63,686 nt of DNA, filler included, from an uncultured Clostridia bacterium (GCA_964482715.1; 3 parts of 3 records of this genome joined end to end with filler, not necessarily neighbours in it); one strand, 5' to 3'; shown: positions 3,008 through 15,748, numbered from the whole stretch's first letter. Program-made: numbers and translations. The notes: generated by a model from the sequence alone, not told the origin.

Positions 3008-3026
3008 TTTGAGAGGAGGCTCTCTT

Positions 3027-4418
3027 TTGCGAGAAGAGTGTGGGATATTCGGTATCTATAATCACCCTCAAGCCACAAAGCTTACCTACCTTGGTCTTTA
3101 CGCCTTACAGCATCGAGGTCAGGAAAGTGCAGGCATAGCGGTATCTGATGGTTTTAATGTTCTGATTCACAGAGGATTGGGTCTTGTAGATACGGTCTTT
3201 AATGAAGAAATTTTGGGAAGTCTTTCCGGGCATATAGCCATAGGGCATAACCGTTATTCCACTATGGGGTCTATCTCTCTTGCCAACACTCAGCCACTTT
3301 TGATTACCTTCTTCGGCGAAGGGATAGCCATATCCCACAACGGCAACTTGATAAATGCCAACCAACTCCGGAAAAAATTAGAAACATCCGGCTCTATCTT
3401 TCAGACCACCATGGATACAGAAATCATTGCACACCTTTTTACCAAATATAACAAATCTCTGGGTAAAAGAAGAGCTCTTGTAGAAGCCCTAAGAAAAGTT
3501 AAAGGAGCTTACTCTCTCCTCATACTATTTAACCAAAAGCTTATTGCAGCAAGAGATCCACTTGGCTTTAGACCACTTGTCCTTGGAGTTTTAGGATCAA
3601 GCTATCTGATAGCTTCGGAAACCTGTGCTTTTGACCTTGTAGGAGCAAAATACTTGAGAGAAGTCAACCCAGGAGAAATGTTAATAATCGATGAAAGGAA
3701 TATAAAATCTTACAAAATAGAAGAGTCCAAAAGAAAAGCCCAATGTATATTTGAACATATCTACTTTGCTCGACCGGATAGTATAGTCTTTGGAGAAGGT
3801 GTTCATGGAGTAAGGGTCAAAATGGGAAGAGTATTAGCCAGAGAACACCCGGTTAAAGCTGATATCGTGGTGCCTGTTCCTGATTCGGGAATCTCTGCTG
3901 CACTGGGATACGCGCAGGAAAGCAAGATACCTTACGCTATGGGACTTACAAGAAATCATTATGTGGGAAGGACTTTTATCCAGCCTCTGCAATTTGTCAG
4001 AGACATGGAGGTCAAAATAAAATTAAATCCCATAAGAGAGGTTTTACGAAACAAAAAGGTGGTCCTCGTAGATGATTCCATTGTCAGAGGAACAACCAGC
4101 AAAAAGATAATCGGACTTCTCCGTGAGGGAGGAGCAAAGGAAATTCATTTCAGGATAAGTTCTCCTCCTATAAAATTTCCCTGCTTTTTTGGAATCGACA
4201 CACCTGTTCAAAAGGAGCTTATCGCTGCGACTTGCGGTATTGAAGAAATCAGAGACAAAGTAGGAGCTGATTCACTCGGTTATTTGAGTTTAAAGGGTCT
4301 TTTAAGTTGTGTAAAAAATCCCCAGGATTTCTGCACAGCATGCTTTACGGGTAAATACCCCCTTAAGGTTCAGCCTCAAACCAAATACGTTTTTGAGACA
4401 AAGAAAAAAAAGGAGTAA
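3027..4418 (+). CDS. purF: Amidophosphoribosyltransferase; likely TTG start at 3027 with a short propeptide before the catalytic Cys
   Basis: EECGIFG, LQHRGQE, HNGNL, CIFEHIYFARPDS and VDDSIVRGTT motifs; GGAGG SD upstream of TTG 3027. Confidence 0.97.
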   Translation: MREECGIFGIYNHPQATKLTYLGLYALQHRGQESAGIAVSDGFNVLIHRGLGLVDTVFNEEILGSLSGHIAIGHNRYSTMGSISLANTQPLLITFFGEGIAISHNGNLINANQLRKKLETSGSIFQTTMDTEIIAHLFTKYNKSLGKRRALVEALRKVKGAYSLLILFNQKLIAARDPLGFRPLVLGVLGSSYLIASETCAFDLVGAKYLREVNPGEMLIIDERNIKSYKIEESKRKAQCIFEHIYFARPDSIVFGEGVHGVRVKMGRVLAREHPVKADIVVPVPDSGISAALGYAQESKIPYAMGLTRNHYVGRTFIQPLQFVRDMEVKIKLNPIREVLRNKKVVLVDDSIVRGTTSKKIIGLLREGGAKEIHFRISSPPIKFPCFFGIDTPVQKELIAATCGIEEIRDKVGADSLGYLSLKGLLSCVKNPQDFCTACFTGKYPLKVQPQTKYVFETKKKKE

Positions 4419-7651: not shown

Positions 7652-8521
7652 TTAAGCCCGGGGGTGGAATCTTTTGTATATTTTCTTTAATCTCTCCTGG
7701 GTAATGTGTGTGTAAATCTGGGTGGTGGAAATATTCACATGACCCAGAAGTTCCTGGACCGATCTGAGATCAGCATCTGAAGCTAAAAGATGAGTAGCAA
7801 AAGAATGTCTTAAAGTGTGAGGTGAGATAACTTTGGTTATTCCAGCCTTTCTGGCGTACTTTTTGATCAATTTCCAACAGGACTGACGGGAAAGCCTTTT
7901 CCCGTATCGATTGCAAAAAAGGGGAGCAGTAATCTTCTTACCATCTTTTCTCTCTTTTAGATATCTGGAAATCCATTTTATAGCTTCTCTACCCAGAGGA
8001 ACCATTCTTTCGCGAGACCCTTTTCCTTTCACTCTTAACCATCCGCTGTTTAAATTTACATGACCTATGTTCAAACCGGTAAGCTCTGAAATTCGAATCC
8101 CCGTAGCATAAAGAACTTCCAGTAAAGCCTTATCTCTCAGACCAAGAAAGGAATTGGTAGAAGGCGCCTCCAATAAATCCTCTACCTCTTTTAGAGTTAA
8201 AAAGGAGGGAATTTTTCTCCCTCTACGAGGTGCAGTTATATTTTGAGTGGGGTCTTCTTTTATAACTCCCTGTACCAGAAGATATCGATAAAATACTTTT
8301 AAAACGGAAATCTTTCTGGAAATTGAGGAAATAGAAAACCCTTTTTCTTTTAAACTCCCGATATACTCACTTATAAGCTGAGAACTTACCTCTTTAAGAT
8401 CGCCTTCTAACCATTTTTGGAATGTTTGAAGGTCATTTTTATAAGAATAAATCGTATTTTCAGATAGTCCCCTTTCTACTCGGAGATGGTCAAGAAAACA
8501 GTCAATTAGAGAACCTGGCAA
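7652..8521 (-). CDS. xerD: Tyrosine recombinase XerD
   Basis: ERGLSENT N-terminus, LYATGIRISEL, GKGSRER, HTLRHSFATHLL, LLGH, TTQIYTH. Confidence 0.9.
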   Translation of the reverse strand: MPGSLIDCFLDHLRVERGLSENTIYSYKNDLQTFQKWLEGDLKEVSSQLISEYIGSLKEKGFSISSISRKISVLKVFYRYLLVQGVIKEDPTQNITAPRRGRKIPSFLTLKEVEDLLEAPSTNSFLGLRDKALLEVLYATGIRISELTGLNIGHVNLNSGWLRVKGKGSRERMVPLGREAIKWISRYLKERKDGKKITAPLFCNRYGKRLSRQSCWKLIKKYARKAGITKVISPHTLRHSFATHLLASDADLRSVQELLGHVNISTTQIYTHITQERLKKIYKRFHPRA

Positions 8522-9074
8522 AATTCCATCCCTCCTTCAGGGACTTCTCATTTACTCCCAAAAGATCAAGTCTATGGGGTGGTAGCAACTTTTTTAAAGA
8601 AAAAATAAGGCTTTCCAAACTTACCGCCCGAGAAAAAAAAGCCCAGGCACCAAGGACAACCATATTTGCTGATTTGCTTGTGCCTATTTTTTCGGCAATT
8701 TCATTAGCCGGAATTTCAATCAGTCTCAAATTATCTGCTTTAACCTTCTCTCTAATCAAAGATGTGTTCACTACTACCTGACCTTTTGTTTTTATACGCG
8801 GCAGAAATTTCTCCAGTGCTGGATAGCTCATTATTATGGCGCTGGATGGATGTGAGATTATGGGAGAGGGAATCAGACTATCAGATAGGATAACCGTGCA
8901 ATTTGCCGTTCCTCCCCGCATCTCAGCGCCATAAGATGGATAGAAAACAACTTCCCTTTCTTCTATCAGACCTGCATAAGCAAGAAGTTTACCGGCAAAA
9001 ATTATACCCTGACCCCCAAACCCCGCTATAACCACATCTCTGTAAAACCCTTCAAGATGGGTATAATTTTCTAT
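8502..9074 (-). CDS. 2-oxoacid:ferredoxin oxidoreductase gamma subunit; start uncertain (GTG 9035 or ATA 9074)
   Basis: IAGFGGQG, SYGAEMRGG and ANMVVLGA motifs. Confidence 0.88.
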   Translation of the reverse strand: MENYTHLEGFYRDVVIAGFGGQGIIFAGKLLAYAGLIEEREVVFYPSYGAEMRGGTANCTVILSDSLIPSPIISHPSSAIIMSYPALEKFLPRIKTKGQVVVNTSLIREKVKADNLRLIEIPANEIAEKIGTSKSANMVVLGAWAFFSRAVSLESLIFSLKKLLPPHRLDLLGVNEKSLKEGWNFARFSN

Positions 9075-10510
9075 TTTATCTCCTCCATTACCTGTTGAGC
9101 TAAATTCTTTCCTTCTTCGATAATCCTTTCCATCTGCTTTTCACGGGGAGCTTCGGCATAAACCCTTACTTTAGGTTCAGTTCCTGATGGCCTTATGAGA
9201 AGCCAGCTTTCGTCTTCCATGACAAATTTCACACCGTCAATGGTTAAGATTTCCCTGAGAGGAATTCCTCCCAGTGCCGCTGGAGGATTAGAGGTGAGCT
9301 TTTCAATAAATACTTTTTTATCTGCTTTTTCCTGATAAAAATCAACTCTCTTAAAGAAAGATCTACCGAACTTCTTTTCCATCTGTTCAAGAATTTTAGA
9401 TAAAGGTTTTCCCTTTTTAGCAATCATTTCTATAAAGAGAAGCGCCGATAAAATTCCATCTCTCTCCGGGAGATGCCCGTAATACCCATAACCACCACTT
9501 TCTTCACCTCCAAGAATTACCTTTTCTTTAAGCATTTTTTCACAGATATATTTAAAACCAACCGGTGTCTGTTCCCACTCCAGTCCGAATTTTCTGGAAA
9601 TCCTCTCAGGTTGATAACCAAGAGAAACCGTCTTTATCACCTTTCCCCTCATTTCCTTTTCTTCCACCAGATATAAAAGCAGAAGGGAAAAGACCTGAAG
9701 AGGAGAAAGATACCTTCCTGTTCCATCAACCACTCCTACCCTATCTGCATCACCATCAGTGGCTATTCCCAGATCAGCTCCTCTTTTTTTTATTTCTTCC
9801 TGGAGCTGTTTTAAGTTTTCTTCAATTGGCTCAGGGTTTATTCCCCCAAAACCTGGATTATATTTAGGATGAATGGTAAAAAGTTCACAATTGGAATCTT
9901 TTAAAATCTCTTCCAGACATCCATATCCCACTCCATACATGGGATCATAAACCACTCGGAGCCCGGCACTGTTTACAATTTTCATATCCAGAAAAGAGGT
10001 GACCTTTTTTAAATAAGGGGGCAAAATATTGACCGTGGTAGCTAATCCCTTCATCTCTCCTTTTTCCCAGGGTAGGGTTTTAATTGGATTTTTGTCCAGC
10101 AACGACTCAATACGAGCAGTAATTTCGGGAGTAGCTGAACCACCAAACGGGGCCTTTATCTTGACTCCGTTAAACCGGGGAGGATTATGTGAAGCAGTGA
10201 TCATCACTCCACCAGGAAGTTTTCTGTCCACCACGGTGAAAGATACAGCCTGGGTGGGAACATCTGTCTGAGATAAAATAACCGAAAACCCGTTTCCAAG
10301 AAGAACTTCAGCAAAAACCCGGGCAAATTCAGAAGAGAGAAAGCGGGTATCGTATCCTATGACAATTTCTCTCTCCTTTTCCTTCCCTTCTTTGAGCTGG
10401 ATTTTATAATAGTCAGCAACTGCCTGAGCTACTCTTCGCAGGTTATCAAAGGTGAAATCATCGGCTATTACCCCCCTCCATCCGTCGGTTCCAAATTTTA
10501 TCTGTGGCAT
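9071..10510 (-). CDS. Phosphoglucomutase/phosphomannomutase family protein (likely ATG at 10510)
   Basis: FGTDGWRG, catalytic TASHNP, DGDADR, GGEESGG, RPSGTEP. Confidence 0.95.
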   Translation of the reverse strand: MPQIKFGTDGWRGVIADDFTFDNLRRVAQAVADYYKIQLKEGKEKEREIVIGYDTRFLSSEFARVFAEVLLGNGFSVILSQTDVPTQAVSFTVVDRKLPGGVMITASHNPPRFNGVKIKAPFGGSATPEITARIESLLDKNPIKTLPWEKGEMKGLATTVNILPPYLKKVTSFLDMKIVNSAGLRVVYDPMYGVGYGCLEEILKDSNCELFTIHPKYNPGFGGINPEPIEENLKQLQEEIKKRGADLGIATDGDADRVGVVDGTGRYLSPLQVFSLLLLYLVEEKEMRGKVIKTVSLGYQPERISRKFGLEWEQTPVGFKYICEKMLKEKVILGGEESGGYGYYGHLPERDGILSALLFIEMIAKKGKPLSKILEQMEKKFGRSFFKRVDFYQEKADKKVFIEKLTSNPPAALGGIPLREILTIDGVKFVMEDESWLLIRPSGTEPKVRVYAEAPREKQMERIIEEGKNLAQQVMEEIK

Positions 10511-10654
10511 CTTTATCCTCAAAAGTTTTATTAAAAATCTCCCATAAAATACTATCAAAAAAGCGAGAAATGTCAAAGAGGCAAAGTAAAGTTTGTATTT
10601 TAGAGATTTTGACTGATAAAACATAAAATGCTATTGTATAAAAGGAGATATCCA

Positions 10655-11623
10655 ATGAATGTTGTGGGAGTTGGAGCTTTAAACCTAGATTTTATTTATC
10701 AAGTTGATTTTGCTCTGTTTCAAAATGTGGAAAAAGGAACGGAAAGGAGAATAAGCCTCGAAGAATGGGAAGACCTTCGGGTCCTTCTAAAGAAAAAAGG
10801 TAAGTTGATGGTTAAAAATGGGGGAGGTTCGGCGGTAAATACTATTTATACCTTAGCCCGGATGGGGTTTTCCTGTGGGTTTGTTGGTAAAGTTGGAACT
10901 GACAGAGAAGGTGACTTTCTGCTTCAGGAATTAACTGAGGCTGGAGTGGATACGAGTAAGATTGTAAGAGAAGGAAAAACCGGTATCTGTTTAATCCTGG
11001 TTGATAAAAATGGAGAAAGAACCACTTTTATTCTTCCCAATACAAATGACACCTTTTCCTTGAAAGATGTGGAATTTGACTATATCCAGAGTGCCAGGAT
11101 TTTACACGCAGCCTCTTTCCTGGGGGAAGAATCTTTCAAAACACAAAAGGAGATAATTTTACGCACGGGAAATCTTGTGAGTTTTGACCCCGGACATCCT
11201 CACGTCATCAGGGGATGGGTGGAAATCTTTCCACTGCTTAAAAGAACATGGGTACTTTTCTCTACCCAAAAGGAAATAGAAATCCTGACCGGACTACACT
11301 ACAAACAGGGTGTATGGAAAATTCTGGATGCCGGGGTTAAAATAGTAATTTGTAAAATGGGTGAAAGTGGTTCCTGGATAGTATCAAAGGAAGAAAACTT
11401 TTTTCTTCCAGCTGAAAAAGTAAAAGTCTTAGACACCACTGGTGCAGGAGATGTTTATGCTGCCGGTTTTCTGGCCGGCTTGTTAAAAGGTCTGCCGCTT
11501 AAATGCTGTGGCAAAATAGCTACAAGAGCTGCTGGCATTAGTGTCACTGACTGGGGAAGAAAAAGCTACCCCGGGAAAGAAATTTTAGAACTTGCGTTAA
11601 AGGTACAAAAAAATGGGATTTAA
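10655..11623 (+). CDS. PfkB/ribokinase-family kinase
   Basis: GGSAVN, DTTGAGDVYAAG; AAGGAG SD before ATG 10655. Confidence 0.9.
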   Translation: MNVVGVGALNLDFIYQVDFALFQNVEKGTERRISLEEWEDLRVLLKKKGKLMVKNGGGSAVNTIYTLARMGFSCGFVGKVGTDREGDFLLQELTEAGVDTSKIVREGKTGICLILVDKNGERTTFILPNTNDTFSLKDVEFDYIQSARILHAASFLGEESFKTQKEIILRTGNLVSFDPGHPHVIRGWVEIFPLLKRTWVLFSTQKEIEILTGLHYKQGVWKILDAGVKIVICKMGESGSWIVSKEENFFLPAEKVKVLDTTGAGDVYAAGFLAGLLKGLPLKCCGKIATRAAGISVTDWGRKSYPGKEILELALKVQKNGI

Positions 11624-12401
11624 AATTGGCTGGTTTTCTACCGGAAGGGATGAGCAGGCATCTGTCTTACTGGAAGATACCTGTAAAGCTATAGAAGAAA
11701 GAAGGGTAGAAAATCTTGCAATAAGTTTTGTCTTTTGCAATAGAGAAAGAGGAGAAGGCAAGGAAAGTGATGAATTTATTGATCTGGTCAATCGAAAAGG
11801 TATCCCCTTGATCCTTCTTTCTTCAAAAAAATTTCGACCGGATTTAAGGAAAAAAGCACTGAAGGAAAAAAATGAAAGTCTTCTTGAAAACTGGAGAATT
11901 CTATACGATAGAGAAATAATGAAAAGAATAAAAAGATATCCCTTTAGAATAATCTTTCTTGCCGGGTATATGCTGATACTTGGTCCGGAGTTTTGCAGGA
12001 ACTACCCTGTATTCAATTTGCATCCCGCAGCTCCGGGAGGACCCAGGGGCACCTGGCAGGAGGTTATATGGCAACTTATAGAAAAAAAGGCAAAGAATAC
12101 GGGTCTGATGATTCATCGGGTTACCCCTGAACTTGATTCGGGTCCCGCGATTACTTTTTGCCTTTTTTCCATCAGGGGTAAAAGATTTGATCCTCTCTGG
12201 GATAGTTTTGAGAAAAAGTTAAAAAAGCAAGGTATAGAAGCTATTAAGGCAAAGGAGGGGGAAAATGAACCCCTTTTTGCAGCCATCAGAGAAGAGCAGA
12301 AAAAACGAGAATTTCCCTTAATTATTTCAACTTTAAATTTACTTTCTCAAGGAGAGATAAATCCTGGCAAGATTACTTCTCCTCGTCGTATAGAGCTATA
12401 A
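11613..12401 (+). CDS. Divergent PurN-fold (10-formyl-THF-dependent) formyltransferase
   Basis: LAGYM, NLHP and H-x6-DSGP catalytic motifs retained; N-terminal loop is STGRD rather than PurN SGxGSN; basic insertions. Confidence 0.8.
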   Translation: MGFKIGWFSTGRDEQASVLLEDTCKAIEERRVENLAISFVFCNRERGEGKESDEFIDLVNRKGIPLILLSSKKFRPDLRKKALKEKNESLLENWRILYDREIMKRIKRYPFRIIFLAGYMLILGPEFCRNYPVFNLHPAAPGGPRGTWQEVIWQLIEKKAKNTGLMIHRVTPELDSGPAITFCLFSIRGKRFDPLWDSFEKKLKKQGIEAIKAKEGENEPLFAAIREEQKKREFPLIISTLNLLSQGEINPGKITSPRRIEL

Positions 12402-12403
12402 AA

Positions 12404-13444
12404 ATGAAATTACTCTGTTTAGATTGTGAGGGGCCTATTACTTTAAATGATAACGCCTTTGAGATATGCCAGAGTTTTCTGCCCCGGGGAGAAAATTTTT
12501 TTACTCTTATCAGTCGATATGACGACTATCTTGCCTACCTCATCAAAAGGAAAAATTACACTCCGGGAAACACCTTAAAATTAATTACCCCTTTTTTTAA
12601 AGCTTATCGATTAACTAACTCAATAATAAGAACCTACTGCAAAAAAAGCATCAGGTTCGTTCCCGGAGCAGACGAAATGGTAAAGCGAGCAAAATCCATG
12701 CTGAATACCTTTATAATCAGTACAAGCTATACTCCTTATATAGAAGCCCTCTGTGAGCTTCTTGATTTTCCCCGGGAAAATACCTTTTCTACTTTCCTTG
12801 ATCTTGATCAATATCACATAACCACCATGGAAAGAGCCAAACTTATCCGCTTTTATGAAGAGATCCTTTATTTATCCTTAACTCCCCTGGAGAAAACCAG
12901 GGAAAAGAGGGAAATTTCTGTTCAGGATCAAAGAACGATTGATAAGTTAGATGAAATATTTTTCAGGGAAATTCCCGCTATGGAGGTTGGGAAAATTATG
13001 AAGGAGGTCCATCCAGTTGGAGGAGAAGAAAAGGTAAAAGCCTTAAAAAAAGCTCTTATGATGTGTTCCTGTCAGCCTGAGAATGCCATGTATGTGGGAG
13101 ACAGCATAACCGATGCAGCAGTTCTACAGTGGGTTAAAGAAAAAGGGGGTGTGGCTTTAGCCTTTAATGGTAATTTTTACGCTTTAAGAGAGGCTGAATT
13201 TGCCTGTATTTCTCCTCACAGCTTTTGTCTATCTATTGTGATAGACGAGTTTAACAATAACGGAAAAAGGGAGCTGCTGGAAATGGCTTCCAGCCGGGCA
13301 GAAAGAATTTCTGAAAAAAGGTGTATGATACCAGAGGATTGCCTTTTTACCAGGGTAGAAAAAGACAGACTATCTTTTTTGATTGAAGAAAGCGAAAAAA
13401 TGAGAAAAAAGGTAAGAGGTGAAAAAATCGGCGATCTGGGATGA
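12404..13444 (+). CDS. HAD-superfamily hydrolase, EhaR-like
   Basis: Motif I DCEGP, motif II ISTS, motif III Lys in GEEKVKAL, motif IV GDSITD, plus FNGNxYA. Confidence 0.75.
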   Translation: MKLLCLDCEGPITLNDNAFEICQSFLPRGENFFTLISRYDDYLAYLIKRKNYTPGNTLKLITPFFKAYRLTNSIIRTYCKKSIRFVPGADEMVKRAKSMLNTFIISTSYTPYIEALCELLDFPRENTFSTFLDLDQYHITTMERAKLIRFYEEILYLSLTPLEKTREKREISVQDQRTIDKLDEIFFREIPAMEVGKIMKEVHPVGGEEKVKALKKALMMCSCQPENAMYVGDSITDAAVLQWVKEKGGVALAFNGNFYALREAEFACISPHSFCLSIVIDEFNNNGKRELLEMASSRAERISEKRCMIPEDCLFTRVEKDRLSFLIEESEKMRKKVRGEKIGDLG

Positions 13445-13896
13445 GAGGAGTTTATGTTTTATTGATACAAATTGAAAAAGAGATTGAAATCCTGGTGGGA
13501 AGGTTGGGTAAGTGTAAATTTTCACCCGGATACTATCTTTATGTAGGCTCGGGAAAAAATCACCTGGAAAAAAGAGTTGAAAGACATCTTCGACGAGAAG
13601 GAAAAAAGCTTTTCTGGCACATTGATTACCTTTTAGATAACCCTCTGGTAAAAGTTAAAAAAGTCTGGGTCGGAAAAGATATTGAGGAGTGTGATCTGGC
13701 AAAGAAAATAGTTACCAGAAAAGAGTTTGGAGTTCCGGTAAATGGTTTCGGCTCCAGTGACTGCCGGTGCAAAGCTCATCTTTTTTCAGTTTCCGGAGTG
13801 CTGGAAAAAGTTGATTTTTTATGTAAAAATAGATTCTGTCTGCTTGACTGGCCTCTGAAATCTGATAAATTTAACCTTGATAATTCCAAGGTTTAA
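13441..13896 (+). CDS. GIY-YIG (Uri) superfamily putative endonuclease, DUF123-like
   Basis: GVYVL...YLYVGS, RVERH, WHIDYL, FGSSDCRCKAHL. Confidence 0.85.
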   Translation: MRGVYVLLIQIEKEIEILVGRLGKCKFSPGYYLYVGSGKNHLEKRVERHLRREGKKLFWHIDYLLDNPLVKVKKVWVGKDIEECDLAKKIVTRKEFGVPVNGFGSSDCRCKAHLFSVSGVLEKVDFLCKNRFCLLDWPLKSDKFNLDNSKV

Positions 13897-13916
13897 GTAA
13901 AGTAAAGGAGATCCCC

Positions 13917-14132
13917 ATAGCTAAAATTAAAATAGATACTGAAAGATGTAAAGGTTGTGGTTTTTGCATTCACTTTTGTCCTCATAATTTGATCCGCCTG
14001 GACTCTGTTTTTAATCGAAAAGGCTACCATCCTGCAGTATTTGAGGATAAAAATGAGTGCACTGGCTGTGGTATATGTGCTATGGTCTGTCCTGATGTAG
14101 CCATAACAGTTTACAAAGAATTAAAGAAATGA
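13917..14132 (+). CDS. 2x[4Fe-4S] ferredoxin, 2-oxoacid:ferredoxin oxidoreductase delta-like; absent from ORF track because it starts at ATA
   Basis: Manual translation gives (M)AKIKIDTERCKGCGFCIHFCP...NRKGYHPA...CTGCGICAMVCPDVAITVYKELKK*, with two CxxCxxCxxxCP motifs; AAGGAG SD 6 nt upstream. Confidence 0.9.
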   Translation: MAKIKIDTERCKGCGFCIHFCPHNLIRLDSVFNRKGYHPAVFEDKNECTGCGICAMVCPDVAITVYKELKK

Positions 14133-14136
14133 AACA

Positions 14137-14715
14137 ATGATTTACTACCTGGAGGGAATTCTTAAGGAAAAAAAACCGTCTCGAATAATTGTGGAGGTGA
14201 GAGGAATAGGGTATGAGATTTTTATTCCTTTTTCCATTTTCGAAAAGCTACCTGAACCAGGAAAAAGGATCAAGGTATATACTTACTTACACACCAGGGA
14301 TGAAAAAAATTCTCTATACGGTTTTTTAGACCCTGGGGACAGAGAATTTTTTCTGGATCTAACATCCATTTCCAGTGTTGGTCCTCGTTCGGCCTTAAAG
14401 ATGCTTACCCGAATTTCCCCCTCAGAATTTAAGGAAGCCATAAATCAAAAAGATCTTGATAGATTAACCAGTGTCCCGGGAATTGGAAAGAAAACAGCTC
14501 AACGTTTGATTCTGGAAATGGGAGGAGTAATAAAAGAGAGGGAAATTCCCGAGGCAAAAGAAAGAACAATATTTAAAGATGGTGTGATGGGTCTTATATC
14601 GTTGGGTTATAGTAAAAGTGAGGCAGAAAGAGCGGTAAGAAGAGCACTCAAAGATGGAAAAACTAAAAAAAAGGATTTAGCCAGCTTGATCAAGGAGGCT
14701 TTGAAGTATGTATAG
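14137..14715 (+). CDS. ruvA: Holliday junction branch migration protein RuvA
   Basis: [33 protein letters not shown]. Confidence 0.95.
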
Positions 14716-15748
14716 GGAAAAAGAAAGTCTGACCACTCCGCGTCTTCAACAAGAAGAAAGAGGAATTGAACTAACTTTACGTCCTCTCAAAATGGAAGAC
14801 TTTATTGGTCAGGAAAAGGTAAAACAAAAACTGGAGATTTTTATTAGAGCTGCTCTTAAGAGAAAGGAGGCTCTGGATCACACTTTACTTTACGGTCCTC
14901 CTGGGCTTGGTAAAACCACTCTGGCTCATATAATTGCCCGGGAGATGAAAGGCAACATTCACGCCACCAGTGGCTCAGCAATAGATCGTCCTGGAGAGCT
15001 GGCTAAAATACTTACCAATACGCAACTAAAGGATGGAGATGTACTTTTTATCGATGAAATTCACCGTTTACCTCCTCAGGTGGAAGAGGTACTTTATTCA
15101 GCCATGGAAGACTTTAAAGTAGATATAATTCTTGGGAAAGGAGCAAGTACTCGTTCGGTAAAAATTCCCCTTCCACGCTTCACATTAATAGGAGCCACCA
15201 CCAGAGCTGGCCTTCTCACCTCACCTCTTCGAAATAGATTTGGTGTTACAAGTCACCTTGACTTTTACACTCCGGACGAACTATTTATCATTATTCTGCG
15301 TTCAGCCCGCATCCTGAGGATAAAGATAGAGGAAGAGGGAGCCAGGGAAATCGCTAAACGGTCAAGAGGAACACCTCGAATTGCTAATCGTTTATTAAGA
15401 CGCATAAGAGACTTTGCTCAGATAAAAGGCAAGGGTGTAATAACCTTAGACATTGCTAAAAAAGCACTTGATATGCTGGAAATTGACAGTAAAGGACTCG
15501 ATCCCATGGATAGAAAAATACTCAAAACACTCCTTTATAAATTTGGAGGCGGTCCAGTGGGAATCAAGACTTTAGCTATGGCTGTAAATGAAGAGCCAGA
15601 TACAATTGAAGAGGTTTACGAACCTTACCTGCTTCGAGAGGGACTCATAAACCGGACACCTAAGGGTCGGGTTGCCACCAAACTTCTTTATGACTATCTA
15701 AAAGAAACCCCACCTGGTTCTCTGCAACAACAATTAAACTTTCTTTAA
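14708..15748 (+). CDS. ruvB: Holliday junction helicase RuvB
   Basis: [38 protein letters not shown]. Confidence 0.98.

Follow-up and report, generated by a model that had tools for sequence, protein, structure and literature searches.

A PfkB kinase, a divergent PurN-fold formyltransferase and an AF1437/EhaR-type HAD protein as a candidate purine-synthesis module in an uncultured Clostridia bacterium

Introduction

Two enzymes, PurN and PurT, are known for step 3 of purine synthesis, the conversion of glycinamide ribonucleotide (GAR) to formylglycinamide ribonucleotide (FGAR). The present analysis concerns a gene run at positions 10655-13896 of a 63,686-nucleotide stretch of DNA from an uncultured Clostridia bacterium (GCA_964482715.1), hereafter the window, in which a PfkB-family kinase, a divergent PurN-fold formyltransferase (FT) and a haloacid dehalogenase-type (HAD) protein are encoded in succession. 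FTs of this module share with PurN (TIGR00639; PDB 1CDE, 1GAR and 4ZYV) the fold, the catalytic Asn/His/Asp set and an LAG[FY]M motif, and in some lineages they also hold its operon place between purM and purH; unlike PurN, they are almost always linked to an HAD and a PfkB kinase. PurT spends one ATP on the step, as would the kinase-dependent route proposed here, and is an ATP-grasp enzyme unrelated to all three proteins of the window. We propose, with a probability of roughly 0.6, that the kinase, FT and HAD are the bacterial PurN-fold form of a conserved GAR-to-FGAR module, which seems to stand in for the usual step-3 enzyme in many anaerobic bacteria and archaea without canonical PurN or PurT.

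The closest described gene set is archaeal. Passages of Kaster et al. 2011 (PMC3087415) describe EhaS and EhaT as an Ftr-like and a ribokinase-like protein cotranscribed with ehaA-R, the Ftr copy being called EhaS in one place and EhaT in another, and take both for hydrogenase subunits because of this cotranscription. The account agrees with what the initial annotation of the window, made from the sequence alone, had stated, namely an Ftr paralog and a ribokinase-like protein at the end of eha. Methanothermobacter EhaR, EhaS and EhaT belong to the same trio of families (HAD-like, formyltransferase and ribokinase-like) as the window proteins, a link made through that paper and database source names. 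The archaeal set has an Ftr-fold formyltransferase and is cotranscribed with a hydrogenase, whereas the window has a PurN-fold FT and no hydrogenase genes were seen there.

According to passages of Brown et al. 2011 (PMC3261824), neither purN nor purT could be found in two Archaeoglobi, in Methanopyrus kandleri and, among the Methanobacteriales, in Methanothermobacter, Methanosphaera and two Methanobrevibacter species; the purine prototrophy of M. thermautotrophicus is stressed there. The HAD family takes in Archaeoglobus fulgidus AF1437, and database source names together with the eha operon extend it to the Methanobacteriales. If the proposed role is correct, the module would fill the step-3 gap in several purine-prototrophic archaea. 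Three genes so far assigned to a hydrogenase would then receive a different function, and the annotation would be corrected for an HAD family with 350 cluster representatives (E≤1e-30 in an exhaustive search with the HAD profile). A search of the open-access literature, with subscription journals and supplements outside its scope, returned no paper giving the trio a role in purine synthesis.

Proteins of the module

The initial annotation had described four tightly coupled, co-directional genes, and the calls of open reading frames (ORFs) and the family scans agree with this arrangement. The kinase and FT genes overlap by 11 nt, FT and HAD are separated by 2 nt, and the HAD gene overlaps the fourth by 4 nt:

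10655..11623, + strand: PfkB-family (ribokinase-like) kinase, with an alternative upstream start at 10628
11613..12401, + strand: divergent PurN-fold formyltransferase (FT), from the ORF, PF00551 and an AlphaFold2 (AF2) model
12404..13444, + strand: AF1437/EhaR-type HAD-IB phosphohydrolase or phosphotransferase, from the ORF, the family profile and an AF2 model
13441..13896, + strand: DUF123 (GIY-YIG-like) protein, PF01986 at 95 bits

The FT matches PF00551 at 47.1 bits (cut-off 26.1) and misses the PurN equivalog TIGR00639, with 53.5 bits against a cut-off of 150.1. The catalytic residues N135, H137 and D175 are invariant among 38 family members, and the NLHP and ELDSGP motifs are both present, in agreement with the initial annotation. 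Two further statements made there about the protein also held on alignment with 14 comparison PurN sequences: the loop SG[RSN]G[ST]N, kept by all 14, is replaced in the FT by STGRD, of which D13 is invariant, and the FT carries insertions relative to PurN, two in number and of about 22 residues each.

The AF2 model of the FT (pLDDT 93.9) was compared with solved structures using Foldseek. The best folds were GAR transformylases from many organisms, at target-normalised template modelling (TM) scores of 0.71-0.83 and 17-21% identity, and these outranked ArnA, PurU and the sugar N-formyltransferases. In a tree of 33 module FTs and 14 canonical PurN, the latter sampled from two phyla, one branch of length 2.5 divides the two sets with a support of 100/100.

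The window kinase matches PF00294 at 166.7 bits and lies below all NCBIfam equivalog cut-offs, including that of ribokinase proper (TIGR02152, 118.9 bits against 299.65). Of the two starts, that at 10655, a Met preceded by one other in frame, fits the kinase family alignment better than that at 10628. In this alignment G57-G58 (GG) and G263-A264-G265-D266 (within TGAGD) are invariant. The nearest solved relatives are YdjH, ribokinases, the nucleoside kinase MJ0406 and adenosine kinase; with the module-kinase profile, the ribokinases, MJ0406, adenosine kinase and aminoimidazole riboside kinase (1TYY, at 110 bits) scored 110-166 bits. The riboside and nucleoside kinases of the PfkB type are of the same family as the window kinase.

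The window HAD scores slightly below the cut-offs of PF12710 (25.2 bits) and PF00702 (23 bits), and below that of the HAD-IB model TIGR01488 (34.2 bits against 45). Its motif I, DCEGP, has DxE instead of DxD, an atypical form already pointed out in the initial annotation, and is invariant in 29 relatives. Also invariant are D7, S106-T107-S108, K210 and G232-D233-S234-I235-T236-D237, matched to HAD motifs I-IV by inspection, and a C-terminal tail RGE..G.LG. The family profile finds PDB 1Y8A, the AF1437 protein of Archaeoglobus fulgidus deposited as a 'hypothetical protein', at E 7.6e-56. The AF2 model (pLDDT 91.7) superposes on 1Y8A with TM scores of 0.84/0.93 at 31% identity. AF1437, with DWEGP for the DCEGP of the window, is a clear homolog. 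The next matches of the model were the phosphoserine phosphatases (SerB), the phosphotransferase ThrH and MtnX. Some database sources label relatives of the window HAD 'energy-converting hydrogenase A subunit R'.

Recurrence in bacteria and archaea

A search with the HAD alignment, taking one genome per species, gave 556 confirmed relatives, and the best 80 loci were kept. The HAD was called as an ORF in 79 of them, which is the denominator of the locus counts below; in the remaining one, L020, the ORF was uncalled, yet tblastn shows HAD, FT and PfkB to be adjacent. A formyltransferase was encoded within three genes of the HAD in 65/79 loci, PurN-fold in 32 and Ftr-fold in 33, the Ftr fold being confirmed by Pfam (PF01913, PF02741) in four. 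A PfkB kinase lay within the same distance in 57/79, and both partners together in 57/79. Eight loci had the formyltransferase without PfkB, and in most of these the HAD was no more than two genes from a contig end. The expectation in the initial annotation that the triad would recur in both domains, paired with formyltransferases of two unrelated folds, was therefore borne out by the neighbourhood survey that it had suggested, in which the three genes do co-occur.

The order of the genes depends on the lineage. The window order PfkB-FT-HAD is common to loci titled Aerophobetes and Thermodesulfobacteriota, and the other arrangements were FT-HAD-PfkB, HAD-FT with PfkB on the opposite strand, and HAD-Ftr-PfkB. 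Other neighbours of the HAD gave no functional lead. In the phylum of the archaeal genome G006 their products include a fructose-1,6-bisphosphatase, an amidohydrolase, aspartate-semialdehyde dehydrogenase, translation GTPases and proteins of the TPR, CBS and Usp types. In Thermodesulfobacteriota-type loci, the genes that follow the HAD encode methyltransferases, a rhomboid protein, an M18 peptidase and a ClpP-like protease.

In several lineages the module stands within purine operons. In 37/79 loci purD stands no more than three genes from the HAD, and the order (purF)-purD-HAD-Ftr-PfkB is found in loci titled Bathyarchaeota or Bathyarchaeia and in L011. In L044 the order is purF-purD-FT-HAD-PfkB with a PurN-fold FT, and both formyltransferase folds therefore fill the same operon slot. 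L013 reads purM-FT-HAD-PfkB-purH-deaminase-purB-purA, and four further loci (L018, L019, L024 and L032) have the same gene pattern as judged by ORF size. L069 has HAD-FT-PfkB-purH, with purH directly after the module, and L033 has an ORF of fitting size at that place.

The module proteins are also found fused. Among the best 150 of the 350 HAD cluster representatives there were three long proteins, P0281, P0325 and P0330. P0281 (599 aa; two members, from two sources) is a module-type FT fused to an HAD. In P0325 (899 aa) and P0330 (961 aa), which are 46% identical and represent four sequences in all, the HAD is preceded by 540-600 residues in which nothing could be recognised except some 35 residues resembling the PurT/PurK ATP-grasp (NF006766, E 2.8e-8, 33 bits). 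A PfkB-FT fusion, P0241 (605 aa), is known from one sequence and could be a read-through. In one genome, G064, a PurT is encoded beside a PfkB-HAD pair; this protein passes NF006766 (342.5 against 339) and fails TIGR01142 (344.8 against 502.15).

Distribution relative to PurN and PurT

Ten module-bearing genomes (G001-G010) were examined for the enzymes of this part of the pathway. PurT was over its cut-off in none of them. In each of G001-G005, PF00551 finds exactly two proteins, an Fmt-sized frame (323-396 aa) and the module FT, and PurD is over cut-off in all five. In G006-G010 neither PurN over cut-off nor PurT at E≤1e-30 was found. One PurD-like match was obtained per genome; those of G009 and G010 exceed the cut-off, and those of the archaeal G006-G008, where the gene adjoins the HAD, score 254-264 bits. 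G006 and G007 have two Ftr genes each, the lower-scoring copy being that of the module; G008, in which the module has a PurN-fold FT, has a single Ftr located elsewhere in the genome.

The initial annotation had named, as a case against its own proposal, that the FT might simply be the genome's only PurN and fall inside the canonical clade. In the event module-bearing genomes do seem to have no PurN-like enzyme besides the FT, which nevertheless falls outside the canonical PurN clade as sampled.

Across wider samples of three phyla the HAD is anticorrelated with PurN and PurT. For the 121 genomes from the phylum of G006, PurN (E≤1e-8) or a PurT-like protein (E≤1e-60) was found in 15/60 HAD-positive and 55/61 HAD-negative genomes. 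In the phylum of G004 (101 genomes), PurN over cut-off or PurT was found in 0/22 HAD-positive genomes against 46/79 others; one of the 46 PurN-bearing HAD-negative genomes also has PurT. The phylum of G007 (101 genomes) had PurN (E≤1e-25) or a PurT-like protein in 0/11 HAD-positive genomes and 64/90 others, or 56/90 if PurN over cut-off alone is counted. The Fisher p values for the three comparisons, 8e-14, 2e-7 and 5e-6 respectively, overstate the evidence because the genomes are mutually related, and so not phylogenetically independent, and many are incomplete bins.

None of HAD, PurN and PurT-like protein was found in 6/121 genomes from the phylum of G006, which may reflect incompleteness, purine auxotrophy or another enzyme.

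Remodelling of the phosphate loop

The N-terminal loop of PurN, SGxG[ST]N, is presumably the site of the GAR 5'-phosphate, as in E. coli PurN structures. Where PurN and the HAD occur together, this loop is altered. The PurN sequences of the 14 HAD-positive genomes with PurN over cut-off were aligned with those of 42 of the 44 HAD-negative genomes having a PurN match, G086 and G102 being left out. All 14 HAD-positive loops are non-standard (SGRGTD in 5, S[VA]SSWGGN in 7 and SNTAGN in 2), whereas 41/42 HAD-negative loops have the form xRGxN (SGRG[STE]N in 28, SNRG[SG]N in 3 and [SG]NRGRN in 10), the sole exception being G040 with SGEGDA. Within the module FT family the loop is STG[RK]D, except that loci titled Bipolaricaulota and Fraserbacteria have TSLHD, and the Asp is invariant. 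One loop has been rebuilt in five different ways, each co-occurring with the HAD. This fits the earlier suggestion of a coupling between phosphate handling and formylation.

Two genomes of about 1.0 Mb each, G085 (locus L112) and G101 (L115), have HAD-PfkB-Ftr together with a PurN with the loop SNTAGN, and in both the sole Ftr is the module-linked one. A separate bacterial subfamily (L173-L177) with the loop FASGxxxGGGSGF comprises proteins of 229-269 aa that score 66-81 bits against the PurN profile. Seven HAD-negative genomes (G131, G144, G154, G175, G177, G186 and G223) contain PF00551-like frames of 262-296 aa; these were considered as module-type FTs and rejected, as they keep SGSG[ST]N.

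Proposed metabolic role of the module

The simplest account of these patterns is that the module converts GAR to FGAR where PurN and PurT are lacking, that the HAD is its constant part, usually accompanied by the kinase, and that the formyl-transfer enzyme is interchangeable. The GAR-to-FGAR assignment draws on gene content, synteny, the anticorrelation with PurN and PurT, the folds, the loop changes and the fusions; the substrates, the formyl donors and the order of steps we infer. As the FT keeps the Asn/His/Asp set of PurN and the folate-side LAGYM, 10-formyl-tetrahydrofolate is the most likely formyl source for the window enzyme, and the archaeal Ftr paralog that takes its place presumably uses a donor of the methanopterin or methanofuran type. 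Since the same HAD stands beside enzymes with different formyl donors, the HAD and kinase should act on the acceptor or the product rather than the donor. The remodelling of the phosphate loops likewise suggests an involvement of the acceptor or product side. The rebuilt loop, in the company of a phosphatase-like HAD and a ribokinase-like kinase, makes it probable that the acceptor is GAR in a changed phosphate state.

A possible sequence of reactions would begin with the HAD taking off the 5'-phosphate of GAR, or keeping it as a phospho-enzyme. The FT would then formylate glycinamide riboside, and the kinase would use ATP to re-phosphorylate the product to FGAR. In a variant of the last step the phospho-enzyme form of the HAD would return the phosphate, and the kinase would serve only to rescue escaped ribosides; the resemblance of the HAD to ThrH means that it could pass the phosphate on in this way, saving the ATP. 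The order might also be the reverse, with the kinase adding a phosphate, formyl transfer following and the HAD removing the phosphate. We prefer the order in which the phosphate comes off first. It is supported by the invariant Asp where the phosphate site used to be, since a phosphate is not to be expected next to such a residue. PfkB kinases typically phosphorylate a ribofuranose primary hydroxyl, a preference that supports the kinase as the last, phosphate-restoring step.

A broader version of this scheme would have a core of phosphate removal, formylation and phosphate return recruiting formyl-transfer enzymes of three unrelated folds, PurN-like, Ftr-like and PurT-like, with the 5'-phosphate removed or moved by the HAD and put back by the kinase or the HAD phospho-enzyme. 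We regard this version, like the mechanism of phosphate removal and return itself, as tentative and more apt to fail than to hold. If it held, the module would be the GAR formyltransferase reported missing in Archaeoglobi, Methanobacteriales and Methanopyrus, and the position of ehaR, ehaS and ehaT at the end of the eha operon would be explained. If the idea of a changed phosphate state is true, purine synthesis would gain an intermediate of a new kind. Direct testing is feasible, as the proteins are small and soluble and a crystal structure exists for one.

Several observations weigh against the proposed GAR-to-FGAR role. The absence of PurN and PurT was examined in genomes of relatives that are mostly incomplete metagenome bins, and 14 HAD-positive genomes carry PurN over cut-off. 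Neither a formyltransferase nor PfkB is within three genes of the HAD in 14/79 loci, although in seven of them, all Thermodesulfobacteriota-type records, enough flanking sequence is available; one of the seven is in G010, where the FT is encoded elsewhere in the genome. In the phylum of G006, PfkB is adjacent in 23/59 loci and Ftr is within four genes in only 8, and G165 has a module-type FT and no HAD at E≤1e-20. The PurN-like type with the loop FASGxxxGGGSGF occurs in the HAD-positive G181 and G218 and also in the HAD-negative G141, G220 and G183, and the placing of the GAR 5'-phosphate at the PurN loop is taken from E. coli PurN structures. The PurT likeness of P0325 and P0330 is weak, covering about 35 residues at 33 bits, with E 0.06 against PurT in the PDB. 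Finally, dephosphorylation followed by rephosphorylation costs one ATP with no evident benefit.

The alternative that survives best, although we consider it unlikely, is that the FT is a divergent but ordinary GAR transformylase and that the HAD and kinase have a separate purine-linked job such as the recapture of ribosides that leak from pathway intermediates or the supply of ribose phosphates. The retained catalytic triad and the GAR transformylases as closest folds are as expected for such an enzyme, and HAD-PfkB pairs exist without an adjacent formyltransferase. PfkB-family kinases include one that phosphorylates a purine-intermediate riboside, aminoimidazole riboside kinase, and the module kinase resembles ribokinases and nucleoside kinases, among them this enzyme (1TYY, at the 110 bits given above). 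An ordinary transformylase leaves unexplained, however, why the loop is rebuilt both in the 14 PurN of HAD-positive genomes and in the whole module FT family, why an HAD is fused to an FT and to a region holding a PurT/PurK-like stretch, and why the HAD-kinase pair is associated with formyl-transfer enzymes of unrelated fold.

The reading offered in the initial annotation was a phosphorylate-formylate-dephosphorylate route on a ribosyl or amino-sugar substrate, apart from de novo purine synthesis, for instance in the salvage of ribosides or damaged purines or in the turnover of 5-aminoimidazole-4-carboxamide ribonucleotide (ZMP). In its favour, the module of the window has no purine genes beside it, which is also true of most Aerophobetes-titled or Thermodesulfobacteriota-titled loci, and the FT does lie below the PurN equivalog cut-off. 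Elsewhere, however, the module is found inside purine operons in several lineages, 10/10 module-bearing genomes have PurD while 0/10 have PurN or PurT over cut-off or any other step-3 candidate, and the HAD is anticorrelated with PurN and PurT in the samples of three phyla. A role outside de novo synthesis is accordingly very improbable, and what stands of the earlier interpretation is the idea of the triad itself.

That the HAD, formyltransferase and kinase are accessory subunits of the Eha energy-converting hydrogenase, as the cotranscription with ehaA-R stated in passages of PMC3087415 and the source name 'energy-converting hydrogenase A subunit R' might indicate, was rejected, since no hydrogenase subunit was found among the scanned neighbours (those of the window and of a scanned subset of 80 and 59 loci), so that the module here is not within or beside eha genes, and since it is present in bacteria within purine operons.

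Surroundings of the module in the window

The DUF123 protein was counted in the initial annotation as a possible fourth member of the pathway. This could not be sustained: its gene adjoins the HAD in only 2/79 loci (L001 and L014) and for this reason was not taken into the conserved set. It is a lineage-specific neighbour and a local passenger.

The other neighbours include a phosphoglucosamine-mutase-like gene, the gamma subunit of a 2-oxoacid:ferredoxin oxidoreductase, pheT and one purine gene:

3009..4418, + strand: purF (amidophosphoribosyltransferase), TIGR01134 at 538.1 bits against a cut-off of 350

This gene encodes the first enzyme of the purine pathway and lies 6.2 kb upstream of the module, non-contiguous with it, with opposite-strand genes in between. 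The initial remark that the FT is not in a pur operon is thus right for the immediate neighbours, as no purine gene directly touches the module in the window, but a true purF is present in the same window.

The phosphoglucosamine-mutase-like gene (9071-10624, - strand) belongs to the PGM/PMM family and scores 335.6 bits against Arch_GlmM (cut-off 439). It is divergent from the kinase gene, and about 30 nt separate the two starts. An ORF of 470-479 aa has the same place and orientation in five Aerophobetes-type loci (L001, L008, L009, L012 and L017), where it was matched by position only. The minimum of the cumulative GC skew falls at about 8000-10600 of the window, at the switch of gene orientation from - to +; it could be a simple effect of gene orientation or mark a replication origin.

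On the downstream side two ORFs of 192 and 346 aa come after the DUF123 gene (13441-15748 in all, + strand); by size and sequence they look like ruvA and ruvB, and the DUF123-ruvA-ruvB order is the same in L001. It seems possible that the nuclease-like DUF123 protein is linked to RuvAB rather than to the purine module.

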